Source: a candidate division CSSED10-310 bacterium (GTDB lineage: Bacteria > CSSED10-310). Taken from it: a DNA stretch of 64,000 nt. Below, piece after piece: positions 55,639-60,143 of this stretch. The stretch lies in assembly GCA_016931515.1 (NCBI GenBank), contig JAFGEQ010000011.1, forward strand, positions 488 to 64,487, written 5' to 3'. The translations under genes and the position numbers were made by a program. The notes under the pieces were generated by a model. That model made no database searches. It was not told the DNA's origin and saw only the letters and a program-made list of their open reading frames with translations. Numbering within the stretch: the stretch's first letter is position 1; every line of letters starts with the position of its first letter.

Positions 55639-55722
55639 GCGGGAGTGGCGGAATTGGCAGACGCGCTAGGTTGAGGGCCTAGTGGGGGAAACTTCGTGGG
55701 GGTTCAAGTCCCCCCTTCCGCA
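55639..55722 (+). tRNA. tRNA-Leu (anticodon GAG), type II with long variable arm. CCA not encoded
   Basis: Acceptor stem GCGGGAG/CTTCCGC (7 bp, one G-U), anticodon stem CTAGG/CCTAG with loop TTGAGGG, T-arm GGGGG-TTCAAGT-CCCCC, discriminator A. Confidence 0.85.
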
Positions 55723-55730
55723 TATTGAAT

Positions 55731-55766
55731 GGGGTTACCTGAGCGGGTAGCCCCGATTTATTTATG
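55731..55766 (+). terminator. Rho-independent terminator after tRNA-Leu
   Basis: GGGGTTACC-tgagcg-GGTAGCCCC, followed by GATTTATTTAT. Confidence 0.5.
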
Positions 55767-55812
55767 ATATTATCTTTTCGATGAGCACACGGACTGATTC
55801 AGAGACTGGATC

Positions 55813-56871: not shown

Positions 56872-56952
56872 ACGATAAAAGTTGAAAATTTTGGGGAGAG
56901 CTCCTCTTCCTTTCAATTTTCAATTTTCAATTTTCAATTTTCAATTCTCAAT
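56854..56952. repeat. Inverted arrays of heptanucleotide microsatellites forming a long imperfect hairpin between convergent genes
   Basis: (TTGAAAG)x3 plus a TTGAAAA at 56854-56888, facing TTTCAAT x5 plus TCTCAAT at 56911-56952, around a GGGGAGAGCTCCTCTTCC core. The left array overlaps the last codons of the radical SAM gene and the right array overlaps the last codons of the GT-C gene. Confidence 0.6.
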
Positions 56953-58528
56953 TCTCCGGGCTCCACGGCATCAATAACCCCTGATTTTCCCGTGGATTCG
57001 CCATGTATTCAGGGTCGGGAGTAAGTGCCGGGTCGCGTTTGAACAGGATGAACGGCGCGCCGGTACCAAGGTCGACCTTTATCCGCCGGTAACCCAGTTT
57101 TTCAGGTTCCATCAACATGAAAACAACATAAGTCGGTTCCTTGCGGATAACATGGATCAGATCGCTCTTGCCGTGGGCGGTGAGTTGTCCCGGCTCAAGC
57201 GGCAGGTGGGCGATATGCTCATCGACGATGCCCAGCAGATCGAAGCAGGGAATTTTGGCATAGTATCCCAAAGCACCGATGGCGCGTGTGGCCATCGTGT
57301 CGCCAGGTTGTGCGTGCGCCCGGAGCCACTCCCCAAGCAGTTTCGATGCCCGGCAGTATTTGAAAATATGATCCTTCACGTAAGCACGGTCCGGTTGGCT
57401 GTAATACCCACGCTGGATGAAAGGTATCATGACAGCGGTCAGCGCCAGCGGCGCCCATAAGCTCCACGACGGTCGCGACACGGATCTGAAAATGACCGCG
57501 ATGCCCTCCACGGCGAAAAACACCATTAGCGGCAGGACCGGCAGAATCAGCCTCCCGAATGGCTTCTCATCGCCTCCCGCATGCGCGATGTGCAGCACCC
57601 AGGCGGCGAGGACAGTGATCATCAACATTTTGCCTTTGAACCGAGCTCCGATCAGGCCGATGAGTGTCAGGAGCAGAAAGGGGAGATTTCCGTGTGTCAT
57701 GAGGAAGGATGACCAGTAGTGGAACCCCGTCCGTGTAAGTTCAACGGCCTGCGCAGTATCGGTGCCCATGCGCACGTAGTAGGTGTTTGGCAGCAGCCAG
57801 CCGTAATACAACCAGCGCCAAATGAAATAGGGTGCGTAGATGAATCCGAAGGGGACCAGCCAGTTGATTAGCGCTTGAGGTTTGAAGTGGCGTCGGATGA
57901 GGACGAAGACTGCGCCCACGGCCCAAAACAGCAGCCCGTCGGGGCGTGTCAGGGCGGCCAGCACCATGACCAGGCCGGATGCGGACGGTTCAGCGGTGTT
58001 TGCCCGGAACTCCCGGAGCGCCAGGTGGAGGCCGGCCAGCACCATGAACCCGAACATCGCCGTTTCCAGGCCGCCGATTGACCAGAACGCGAACGGAGCG
58101 AACGTGGCCAGCAGCAGGACGGACGCTGCAGGGCGGGGAAAGGGATTCGGTGGCAGCAGGGAGCGGGTCAGAAAATAGAACACGGCCAGGCTCCCGAGGG
58201 AGAACAGGATGCCGAGAATTTTCGATACCGGGACCGGATCCAGGCCGAGCGCCATCGGAATGGCCATCAGGACGGTCCACAGAAAGTTCGTGTAGCCTTC
58301 GACGCGTTCGCCCGGGTTGAATACGAGTCCGTGCCCGTTGATCAGGTTTTCGGCGTAGCGGAAGGTAATCCATGCGTCGTCGTGTGTGAAGCTCCACCAG
58401 CCGATGGCCTGGATAAAGAATATGGCGACGACGACGATCAGCAGCATGGTTGATAGGCAATGCGCTCGGTGTGATACGGAAAACGGTCCGGATTCATTTA
58501 CTTGTCGATCGATGGGAGCGTCATTCAT
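56948..58528 (-). CDS. GT-C fold membrane glycosyltransferase, ArnT/PMT (COG1807)-like, paralog 1
   Basis: HDDAWITFRYAENLINGHGLVFNPGERVEGYTNFLW in the first periplasmic loop (compare the DExRYAE...GDW...YFEKPPL motif of ArnT/PMT enzymes). More than 10 TM. 526 aa. Confidence 0.7.
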   Translation of the reverse strand: MNDAPIDRQVNESGPFSVSHRAHCLSTMLLIVVVAIFFIQAIGWWSFTHDDAWITFRYAENLINGHGLVFNPGERVEGYTNFLWTVLMAIPMALGLDPVPVSKILGILFSLGSLAVFYFLTRSLLPPNPFPRPAASVLLLATFAPFAFWSIGGLETAMFGFMVLAGLHLALREFRANTAEPSASGLVMVLAALTRPDGLLFWAVGAVFVLIRRHFKPQALINWLVPFGFIYAPYFIWRWLYYGWLLPNTYYVRMGTDTAQAVELTRTGFHYWSSFLMTHGNLPFLLLTLIGLIGARFKGKMLMITVLAAWVLHIAHAGGDEKPFGRLILPVLPLMVFFAVEGIAVIFRSVSRPSWSLWAPLALTAVMIPFIQRGYYSQPDRAYVKDHIFKYCRASKLLGEWLRAHAQPGDTMATRAIGALGYYAKIPCFDLLGIVDEHIAHLPLEPGQLTAHGKSDLIHVIRKEPTYVVFMLMEPEKLGYRRIKVDLGTGAPFILFKRDPALTPDPEYMANPRENQGLLMPWSPEN

Positions 58529-60143
58529 TACGGTTATCCTGTTGAATCAAGAAGCCCGGATCACGGCGCCAGATGCGGAGCGTCCAGTTGTCGCAGTTCA
58601 GTGCGATCCTGTGATATCCGGGATACGGCGGTGCCGGAATGCCTGGTTGCTTGACGGTCGCACCGGTGTCATGCGGCTGTATCCGTTCCCGAATCCGCTT
58701 CATCCAGCCGGGTTCCTGCGGTGGAGCGACAATCAGTTCCTGACCGGTAATATATACCGGTTTGCGGGACAAAATATAATCCCAGTCAGATTTTTCATGA
58801 CCGGCGGCGCCGGTGCCCATGCCGGAGCGTTGCTGCCGGGCGATGACCGGATCGATCAGGCCAAAGACATCCAGTGTGTAAAGGCCGCTGTAGTAGGGGA
58901 TGCGGCCGATAACGGATGTCGCCACCGAGTCGCCGGAGCGAGCGTTACGGGCGAGGCACAGGCCGGCTCGAGTGCCCGGATGATTCAGTTCCTTTTGCAT
59001 CGAGAAAATATCCGGCTCCTCCAGTTGCCGGATCAGCGGCCATGCATTGAGGCACAGCGCCACCAGCAGCGCAGCGACTGCGATCCTGCCGGGCAACGTC
59101 GGGTGTGCCGGTCCGATGTCTGGGCGATGGATGCCGACCGCAGCTGCAAAGATCAGGAACGGGATCAGCGGTGCCAGGAATCGGTCGGGACCCAGGGAGT
59201 CTCCGCCGACGGCCAGGATGTAGACCAGGAAAATCAATACGAACGCGGAGGCGGCCAGGGCGGACCGTTCGACCCGGCCCGCGTTGCAAGTGCGTATCAG
59301 CCGGGGCAGACTGACAAGCGTCAACGTGAGGAGGATGATTTCCGGCCAATCCCAGCCCTGGACAATATAAGCGGCACCCCGCCAGAGGACCAGGGATCCG
59401 CCGCCTGTTTTGGCGGCAAACGTGTTGGGCAGCAGATGGCCGAAGTATACGAATTTGAACAGCAGGTAGGGGAGAATCAGCGCGAGGGCGGTGGCGGCGA
59501 ACCGGAGTGTGCGGGGGTGGTTGCGGCGATCGGAAAATCCCGGCGAGCACAATGGGTAGAACATCAGAGCCAAAATGCCCTCCGGGCGGGTCAGAAACGC
59601 CAGTGATGCCGTCACGGCGCTGCGGTAAATGGCGCGCGGGTTGCGGCCGTCACCGGCGTTGTCCGAGGCGGATTGGAACGCCAGCCACATCAGCAATGTG
59701 AACAGCGACGTTTCCAGACCGCGCGTGGACCATGCGATCAGCGACGGGTCCAGCGTGACATACAGAAGCGGCATCCATGCCATTTTAGTTGGGGAGATGC
59801 GACGGACGGTGCGGAAGAATGCCATAAGCAACAGCAGACTGCATAGAACTCCGAGTATTTTGGACAGCAGCACCGGGTTGACGAACTGCATGCCGGTGGC
59901 GATCAGCATGACCCAGAGGAAATTGGTGTAGCCTTCGACGCGTTCGCTCGGATTGAACACGAGTCCGTGGCCGGTGGTGAGGTTTCGGGCGTATCGGAAC
60001 GAAATAAACGCATCGTCTATGGTCGGCATACTGCCGCAGATGGCGATTGCCAGGTGGAGGATCAGGATGGCGGTCAGGATGATGGTTTGAAGCGGTAGGC
60101 GGCACATAGCGGCATGGTAACAGAGGGGAGGGTGATGGATCAA
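58521..60143 (-). CDS. GT-C fold membrane glycosyltransferase, ArnT/PMT (COG1807)-like, paralog 2
   Basis: DDAFISFRYARNLTTGHGLVFNPSERVEGYTNFLW. 540 aa. Its stop overlaps the start of paralog 1 by 8 nt. TTG start per ORF track (ATG alternative 36 nt downstream). Confidence 0.7.
   Translation of the reverse strand: MIHHPPLCYHAAMCRLPLQTIILTAILILHLAIAICGSMPTIDDAFISFRYARNLTTGHGLVFNPSERVEGYTNFLWVMLIATGMQFVNPVLLSKILGVLCSLLLLMAFFRTVRRISPTKMAWMPLLYVTLDPSLIAWSTRGLETSLFTLLMWLAFQSASDNAGDGRNPRAIYRSAVTASLAFLTRPEGILALMFYPLCSPGFSDRRNHPRTLRFAATALALILPYLLFKFVYFGHLLPNTFAAKTGGGSLVLWRGAAYIVQGWDWPEIILLTLTLVSLPRLIRTCNAGRVERSALAASAFVLIFLVYILAVGGDSLGPDRFLAPLIPFLIFAAAVGIHRPDIGPAHPTLPGRIAVAALLVALCLNAWPLIRQLEEPDIFSMQKELNHPGTRAGLCLARNARSGDSVATSVIGRIPYYSGLYTLDVFGLIDPVIARQQRSGMGTGAAGHEKSDWDYILSRKPVYITGQELIVAPPQEPGWMKRIRERIQPHDTGATVKQPGIPAPPYPGYHRIALNCDNWTLRIWRRDPGFLIQQDNRNE

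Follow-up and report, generated by a model that had tools for sequence, protein, structure and literature searches.

In Escherichia coli K-12, the gene for tRNA-Leu(GAG), leuU, lies 14 nt from secG, downstream and in the same orientation. Genomic islands and integrative elements that target tRNA genes lie directly downstream of their tRNA, have a G+C content (GC) unlike that of their immediate flanks, and come with an integrase, a direct repeat and a variable presence. Elp3 and the proteins of the TIGR01212 family (MnmL/YtqA/YhcC) join a radical S-adenosylmethionine (rSAM) core with a CX3CX2C motif to a Radical_SAM_C domain, and AftB, the GT-C(A) terminal β-(1→2)-arabinofuranosyltransferase of mycobacteria, joins a polytopic membrane domain to a C-terminal extracytoplasmic domain (9DLF/9DLH; PMC12041299). 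These are the systems closest to a locus that we analyzed in a candidate division CSSED10-310 bacterium (assembly GCA_016931515.1, contig JAFGEQ010000011.1, positions 488 to 64,487), in a stretch of 64,000 nucleotides that we call the window. At positions 55,639–60,143, behind a tRNA-Leu(GAG), the window carries a GC-rich segment with an Elp3-like rSAM gene and, convergent with it, two tandem genes for GT-C glycosyltransferases, GT-C A and GT-C B. An initial annotation, made from the sequence alone, had raised the hypothesis that this segment is a genomic island, with high-GC native genes as its fallback.

The fallback turned out to be essentially right. We assign a probability of roughly 0.7 to the reading that two chromosomal modules of this bacterium, both inherited vertically, meet in the segment, which would not be a mobile island. 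The first module, on the forward strand, would run Metallophos–ComF-like–MetH–gap–tpi–secG–tRNA-Leu(GAG), be closed by an intrinsic terminator and be followed by the Elp3-like rSAM gene. The second, convergent on the reverse strand, would be an envelope-glycan operon for a six-hairpin glycosidase-like protein of ~716 aa, GT-C B and GT-C A. The look of an island would stem from two lineage-specific AT-rich insertions carrying ORFans, one separating tpiA from secG and the other the 716-aa gene from GT-C B. The segment resembles tRNA-targeted elements in its place directly downstream of a tRNA and in a GC unlike that of its immediate flanks, but it has neither integrase nor direct repeat nor variable presence, its synteny is conserved and its oligonucleotide signature is native.

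Synteny supports this reading. Homologs of GT-C A at 50–66% identity were traced to contigs, among them seven loci from four relatives (L001; L002/L003; L004/L005; L008/L009). In all seven, the run gap–tpi–secG–tRNA-Leu(GAG)–rSAM is intact, with GT-C A and GT-C B convergent to it, and in the longer loci (L001, L002, L004, L005) synteny continues further upstream to Metallophos–PRT (phosphoribosyltransferase)–MetH. The tRNA-Leu(GAG) itself lies between secG and the rSAM gene in L001–L005, L008 and a deeper relative, L013, and orthologs of GT-C B occur in the same order in L001–L005 and L008–L011. A contig search with GT-C A gave just a distant locus from Nannocystaceae (L006), which added nothing to the comparison of synteny.

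Loci in which only one half of the arrangement is present show where the seam runs. In L013, the order MetH–gap–tpi–secG–tRNA-Leu(GAG)–rSAM (the latter 42% identical to that of the window) is followed by unrelated genes, with no GT-C gene adjacent. In L010 and L011, a 743-aa gene, GT-C B and GT-C A follow one another without an rSAM or secG gene nearby. From these arrangements we conclude that two separable modules abut in the window, and that the rSAM gene goes with secG–tRNA-Leu and not with the GT-C genes.

Sequence divergence agrees on both sides of this seam. In pairwise identity matrices for 11 genes, L001 is the closest relative of the window for every gene it has; Fe-ADH (iron-containing alcohol dehydrogenase) is not covered in L001 and was uninformative. 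Identities between the window and L001 are 75% for Metallophos, 87% for gap, 73% for tpi and 65% for the rSAM protein, and 67% for GT-C A, 57% for GT-C B and 74% for the C-terminus of the 716-aa protein. A second group is made up of L002, L004 and L008, and the window and L001 are equidistant from it; identities to L004 are 59.7 and 60.3 for GT-C A and 62.2 and 64.9 for tpi (window and L001, respectively). In protein space, the comparisons give no sign of a foreign mark on the GT-C genes.

An island at the 3' end of tRNA-Leu, with a foreign rSAM gene and two foreign GT-C genes, is barely conceivable in the face of these results. It would account for the contact with the tRNA and for GC and third-position GC (GC3) above those of the immediate flanks, but the same genes stand by the same tRNA-Leu in every near relative, at 42–66% protein identity if the rSAM gene of L013 is included, and the pairwise identities are congruent with those of the flanks. 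As the initial annotation had stated, there is no integrase: scanning all open reading frames (ORFs) of at least 100 aa between 51 and 64 kb with Pfam and NCBIfam profiles returned no integrase or transposase family. Its failure to find an attR-like repeat was likewise borne out, the 22-nt 3' end of the tRNA recurring nowhere in the 64 kb except in the tRNA itself when up to three mismatches were allowed, and a direct-repeat search of 51.1–64 kb yielded only short matches at chance level. Moreover, the tRNA is 100% identical to that of L001, and a GC-rich hairpin with a T-rich run directly follows it in the window, L001, L002, L004 and L008, its stem kept while its bases have changed; the native terminator behind the tRNA is thus conserved. 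We infer that this hairpin closes a putative secG–tRNA-Leu transcription unit. The tRNA was the only feature to pass in an Rfam scan of 51–64 kb, two other matches being far under their gathering scores. Since the secG–tRNA-Leu(GAG) order is shared with E. coli K-12, the tRNA is an ancient fixture at this locus. The spacing in the window, 44 nt, is likewise in the tens of nucleotides; the window differs from the E. coli locus in that an Elp3-like rSAM gene comes next on the same strand and SecG has a long low-complexity tail.

The GC-rich segment as such is real. In 1-kb windows, GC rises from 0.526 through 0.556, 0.577 and 0.594 to 0.616 over the five windows of 55–60 kb (0.53–0.62 overall), compared to 0.41–0.48 at 52–55 kb and 0.43–0.52 at 60–64 kb. 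The tRNA-Leu is placed where the initial annotation had it, but it does not bound the segment. GC starts to rise before the tRNA, at 55.25–55.6 kb, owing to the long, low-complexity C-terminal tail of SecG, rich in Ala, Pro, Glu, Thr and Gly, together with the tRNA (55250–55699, GC 0.60), and codon usage jumps sharply only at ~56.9 kb, in the 76 nt that separate the convergent rSAM and GT-C A genes, 1.2 kb beyond the tRNA. Tetranucleotide usage, GC-normalised in 3-kb windows and correlated with that of the whole window (mean 0.871, standard deviation 0.037), is typical for the GC-rich block (0.82–0.87, within 1.3 standard deviations of the mean) and low in its flanks (0.74–0.79 to the left, 0.78–0.79 to the right). 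It is thus the two low-GC neighbors whose oligonucleotide composition is atypical. Of the uniform signature that would mark native genes, the tetranucleotide part was found and the codon part was not, as GC3 is uneven.

These low-GC neighbors are the two insertions. The left one occupies the tpi–secG spacer and had no tblastn match in any related locus. The right one splits the first gene of the second module from GT-C B, and its genes likewise had no tblastn match in the relatives. The product of the gene fragment beyond it shares 61–76% identity with the C-terminus encoded by the gene that precedes GT-C B in the relatives, where the full-length protein has ~716 aa (715–743 aa; 675 aa in L001). 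In four of the five relatives that have it (L002, L004, L008, L010) this gene is directly upstream of GT-C B, overlapping its start in L002, L008 and L010 and separated from it by 58 nt in L004. In L001, a different insertion sits at the same site, between the 675-aa gene and GT-C B, with a HigB/HTH (helix-turn-helix) toxin–antitoxin pair and an FGE-sulfatase. The GC contrast noticed at first is therefore largely due to AT-rich newcomers on either side of a conserved core. We take this as a caution that a GC-rich block at a tRNA can be the conserved core and its AT-rich neighbors the arrivals, and that scans for local contrast can consequently call an island on the wrong side.

Table 1. Features of the locus around tRNA-Leu(GAG), in order along the window.
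Feature	Position	Strand	Basis and remarks
tpiA	50418-51167	+	PF00121, E 6e-91; last gene of the Metallophos–ComF-like PRT–MetH–gap–tpi run
Low-GC insertion 1, 3,943 nt	51168-55110		tpi–secG spacer in relatives 50-125 nt
849-aa ORFan	51937-54486	-	In insertion 1; GC 0.45; polytopic membrane protein in its N-terminal 550 aa
secG	55111-55593	+	PF03840, E 2e-22; TIGR00810
tRNA-Leu(GAG)	55638-55723	+	ARAGORN; Rfam 51.7 bits
Intrinsic-terminator-like hairpin	55730-55765	+	11-bp stem and T-rich tail (pattern scan)
Elp3-like rSAM gene, 352 aa	55813-56871	+	PF04055 and PF16199 above cut-off
Inverted heptamer-array hairpin	56845-56965		(TTGAAAG)x4.9 and (TTTCAAT)x6.1; Tandem Repeats Finder (TRF)
GT-C A, 526 aa, AftB-like	56948-58528	-	AlphaFold2 (AF2) model, Foldseek, family profile
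GT-C B, 540 aa	58521-60143	-	phmmer to AftB (9dlf), E 9e-8
Low-GC insertion 2, 3,290 nt	60144-63433		Splits the 716-aa gene from GT-C B
DUF2007/zinc-ribbon gene	60543-60863	+	In insertion 2
324-aa ORFan (orf324)	61656-62630	+	In insertion 2; one homolog among 5.8 billion proteins
148-aa ORF (orf148)	62627-63073	+	In insertion 2
First operon gene, C-terminal 188 codons	63434-64000	-	Frame open to base 64000, runs off the window

The observations that weigh against simple vertical inheritance come mainly from the codons of the second module. GC3 is 0.72 in GT-C A and 0.73 in GT-C B, compared to a mean of 0.503 (standard deviation 0.031) for 40 other genes of the window, which places the operon some 7 standard deviations above them (z ~7); the anomaly is real and far beyond chance. 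A third GC3-rich piece (0.70), outside the coordinates first given for the segment, is the fragment of the 716-aa gene. The operon (GC3 0.70–0.73) also exceeds conserved genes of its own strand by ~0.16 (S8 peptidase 0.56, Fe-ADH 0.54). In L002, L004, L008 and L010, GC3 of the orthologous operon equals that of its flanks, which shows that nothing intrinsic to these genes forces a high GC. By the Lawrence–Ochman regressions, GC1, GC2 and GC3 of the operon resemble those of a genome with ~60% GC. Metagenome-assembled genomes (MAGs) of co-occurring CSSED10-310 from one sulfidic spring range from 43.4 to 58.9% GC (PMC8248873), so that an allele from a close, GC-richer relative may have replaced the operon. 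Finally, the two Logan contigs from SRR13394437 that are 100% identical to the window, L012 (55663–56938) and L007 (56924–63181), end within the tRNA and within the heptamer repeat of Table 1, so that the support for these two joins comes from a single assembly and from synteny.

Such an orthologous replacement, in which the GT-C operon (56.9–60.1 kb and the 716-aa gene) was overwritten by the allele of an unsampled, GC-richer close relative, would keep synteny and position in the tree and import the codon usage of the donor. It fits a GC3 jump of ~0.16–0.2 that is restricted to the operon, while orthologs in four other relatives match their own flanks, and a related donor would be expected to leave tetranucleotide usage typical, as it is. 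The spread of 43 to 59% GC among co-occurring populations of the phylum (PMC8248873) would provide donors, and the boundary falls at the gene junction, with the rSAM gene compositionally on the tpi/gap side: its GC3 of 0.61 (G3 0.33) is elevated against the 40 genes (z = 3.3), close to tpi (0.59) and moderately above MetH (0.56) and gap (0.55). Yet no candidate donor was found, the best non-self match among 5.8 billion proteins being, at 66%, L001, which is also closest for the flanks; for the GT-C proteins, as for the flanks, the outgroups are as far from the window as from L001; and the L001 ortholog of the 716-aa gene, the only gene that stands out in L001, is also GC3-rich (0.76), which speaks for an old state that has been maintained and against a recent import. 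We therefore regard replacement as unlikely, though it deserves serious weight.

Under vertical inheritance, the high GC3 of the second module would be a silent-site peculiarity of the lineage, shared by its closest relative for the 716-aa gene. The excess most likely reflects a long-standing, locus-specific enrichment in GC, through GC-biased gene conversion or recurrent exchange of surface-glycan alleles; a single foreign acquisition or recent import is less likely. We favor a maintained, locus-specific process because a high GC3 in the 716-aa gene is common to the window and L001, which have diverged by ~25–35% in protein. A foreign codon bias specific for NNC codons, which the codon table had suggested at first, was rejected after comparison with the relatives. 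C at third positions (C3) amounts to 0.40–0.43 in the operon, and C3 exceeds G3 there, with the reverse in the oppositely oriented flanks, in every relative. The preference for C is thus partly an ordinary lagging-strand effect, and only the total GC3 excess is special to the window. This operon-specific excess at silent sites would be a topic for population data.

The breaks in the Logan contigs also bear on the possibility that the assembly is a chimera, in which two related populations of different GC were joined at tRNA-Leu or at the heptamer repeat. Its attraction lies in the contig ends, which fall in the tRNA (55663) and in the repeat (56924–56938), in the tRNA being 100% identical to its copy in L001, a relative at 66% identity, and in the coexistence of several CSSED10-310 populations at one described site (PMC8248873), from which an origin of the window is itself only inferred. 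We nevertheless consider it very improbable. The right-hand part is itself a mosaic of high, low and high GC, and L007, which spans GT-C A through orf148, independently contains the junction between GT-C B and insertion 2 and thereby confirms the change from high to low GC at 60.1 kb. The rSAM gene, directly to the right of the tRNA, matches the composition of the left flank, both sides share their nearest relative at comparable distances, and the gene order is that of the relatives. The heptamer repeat is specific to the window and could not have been common to two populations.

This repeat forms a hairpin of ~45 bp (fold ΔG −42.3 kcal/mol, z −5.7), which fills the gap between the rSAM gene and GT-C A; in the relatives this gap has just 25–35 nt. 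We consider it likely, from sequence and predicted fold, to act as a bidirectional terminator, and it marks the true compositional boundary.

The initial annotation had described the two tandem genes, convergent with the rSAM gene, as ArnT/PMT-like, and structure prediction supports their assignment to GT-C. The genes overlap by 8 nt at the start of GT-C A, and their products are paralogs with ~29% identity. GT-C B has 540 aa from a TTG start, or 528 aa if the ATG at 60107 is used; GT-C A is represented in databases with a start that makes it shorter than our 526-aa call, and was found there through a homology search. An AF2 model of GT-C A, built from an alignment of 53 sequences, has high confidence (predicted local distance difference test, pLDDT, 91.9; predicted TM-score, pTM, 0.91) and shows helices up to residue 405, followed by a mixed α/β domain; this corresponds to the architecture of AftB, with a polytopic membrane part and a small C-terminal domain on the extracytoplasmic side. 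In Foldseek searches of the PDB with this model, AftB (9dlf/9dlh) came first (E 1.4e-9, TM 0.59–0.64), followed by ALG9/12, ArnT and STT3. By sequence, too, AftB was the best match, and a profile of the family matched it with an E-value of 7.7e-29.

Family and AftB also agree in the residues of the active site. In AftB, the Asp of a DD motif (D62) that opens the first extracytoplasmic loop is the catalytic nucleophile, R221 and R372 are ligands of the donor phosphate, and GH563DK contributes a residue of the acceptor site (PMC12041299). In the 53 family members, which include both paralogs of the window, D51 is invariant and D50 nearly so, in a DD motif after the first transmembrane helix that the profile alignment places on D61/D62 of AftB. 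The invariant R195 (TRPEG) aligns with LVR221PE, the invariant R326 (GGDxxxxxR) with GGDFMHGR372, and the GHEK of the family with GH563DK. Both GT-C A and GT-C B retain the DD motif, the arginines and GHEK, and GT-C B holds all invariant residues of the family.

The differences to AftB are nevertheless considerable. Sequence identity is ~18%, the GT-C proteins of the window have 526–540 aa compared to 617–669 aa in the AftB chains of known structure, no arabinan is known from the host, a candidate phylum of Gram-negative type, and the genes form a tandem pair of paralogs that follows a six-hairpin glycosidase-like gene. At 32.3 and 43.2 bits, the two proteins stay far from the cut-off of the AftB equivalog NF041481 (1050 bits). 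The alignments thus identify them as homologs, but not orthologs, of AftB, with a predicted AftB-like mechanism. To judge from the model and the conserved residues, each would probably use a polyprenyl-phosphate-sugar as donor and pass its sugar on to a glycan acceptor on the extracytoplasmic side. In uncultured CSSED10-310, AftB-type GT-C proteins with intact catalytic residues are encoded by tandem gene pairs that follow a six-hairpin glycosidase-like gene. The six-hairpin character of this gene is suggested by the orthologs in L002 and L010, which have sub-threshold matches to GtaA_6_Hairpin, GH52 and GH116.

At the DNA level, the regions of the two GT-C genes that encode the N-terminal motif (58261–58381 and 59897–60017; DDAxISFRYAxNLxxGHGLVFNPxERVEGYTNFLW) are 79% identical over 121 nt, which could reflect either strong constraint or local gene conversion.

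A more far-reaching picture, which we offer as speculation and hold to be quite unlikely in its entirety, would have the six-hairpin protein and the two AftB-like GT-C proteins build an extracytoplasmic glycan that depends on polyprenyl-phosphate sugars and possibly contains a furanose; the high GC3 would then mark a hot spot of recombination or gene conversion, at which co-occurring populations that differ in GC exchange alleles. This picture also includes a role of the rSAM protein in RNA modification.

The rSAM gene had been recognized from its CSGRCIYC motif, and this holds: the protein scores 44.0 bits with PF04055 (cut-off 29.5) and 69.1 with PF16199 (Radical_SAM_C, cut-off 31.9), and the motif, at residues 48–55, is a CX3CX2C cluster motif. 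The rSAM domain of bacterial and archaeal Elp3 was its best match in the PDB (E 1.7e-17). The family TIGR01212, which had been named as a candidate, does not take it in (75.8 bits, cut-off 180), and it is even further from TIGR01211 (62.6 bits, cut-off 350). In contrast to Elp3, it has no acetyltransferase (GNAT/KAT) domain detectable with Pfam or NCBIfam profiles. By these sequence criteria it belongs to a separate family of ~300–375-aa proteins, among which we found no characterized member.

The neighborhood of the gene is suggestive of its role. Even in L013, where no GT-C gene is adjacent, it follows secG and tRNA-Leu, and distant homologs (33–35% identity) are encoded directly downstream of rnc, in a DksA–PHP–RNase III–rSAM string (L014, 6001–7125, from a Desulfobacteraceae MAG; L015, 6001–7056, from an unclassified metagenome contig). 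Because these conserved neighbors are RNA-related, tRNA-Leu here and rnc in the distant homologs, the gene context suggests a function in the modification of RNA, probably tRNA. A gene fixed at tRNA-Leu(GAG) across the phylum and at rnc elsewhere may thus encode an uncharacterized RNA-modification enzyme, and an Elp3-like rSAM family without an acetyltransferase domain keeps RNA-related neighbors.

The initial annotation had seen in the rSAM and GT-C genes an echo of a similar pairing in the glg cluster of the window. This did not hold up: the two rSAM proteins are unrelated beyond their superfamily, and the gene next to the glg-cluster rSAM gene (5737–6849) encodes a GT2 and not a GT-C protein. 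There is no repeated rSAM and GT-C module in the window. A 756-aa ORF of the glg cluster (10457–12727, forward strand) had no Pfam match, and its comparison with the AftB-like profile in hhalign gave a faint likeness around YFxWRxxYYGxLLPN that was not significant (E 0.067). The remainder of the window is ordinary chromosome, with glgA/glgC, GlmS, RpoD, TolB, MltG, Obg, NadD and SurE, and overall this is an ordinary locus whose genes belong to known kinds.

Within the insertions, the 849-aa ORFan may be a third GT-C protein at the locus, albeit a very divergent one. A scan of 1.84 billion representatives returned, apart from itself, four matches with E-values of 6e-5 to 1e-3; each of these is a GT-C protein of the PMT_2 type, and its PMT_2 domain is the part that aligns. 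Comparison with the AftB-like profile in hhalign was not significant (E 0.64), and an AF2 model from the single sequence was unusable (pLDDT 39, pTM 0.27). In a search for decayed genes in the insertions, we noted by eye stretches resembling DUF4338 (51.3–51.7 kb) and, within 60990–61570, the N-terminus of a GNAT (~61.0 kb) and an alpha-amylase C-terminus (61.2–61.5 kb); Pfam searches of these suspected remnants gave nothing significant, the best match being Acetyltransf_3 with an E-value of 0.021, and we make no claim for them.

A short way upstream of GT-C B, where the DNA is AT-rich, an exact 16-mer, GTCCTATTCGTCCTAT, which contains two GTCCTAT units, occurs at 60264–60279 and again at 60343–60358, 79 nt apart, with a chance expectation of 0.02. 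It is a candidate binding site for a regulator and may belong to a promoter region that arose after the operon was split.

Two genes of L001 need a change of frame to align with their counterparts, GT-C B (8359–9989) and the rSAM gene (11808–12744), which points either to indel errors in long reads or to pseudogenization.

In the upstream run, tpi directly follows gap without an intervening pgk in the window (49384–51167) and in all relatives. MetH is full-length, with pterin- and B12-binding domains and 826–858 aa, in the window (46723–49299), L001 and L013; L008 also has the longer form, where the gene leaves the end of the locus, and in L002 (15301–16206) and L004 (11656–12558) MetH is cut down to the 300-aa homocysteine-binding domain.

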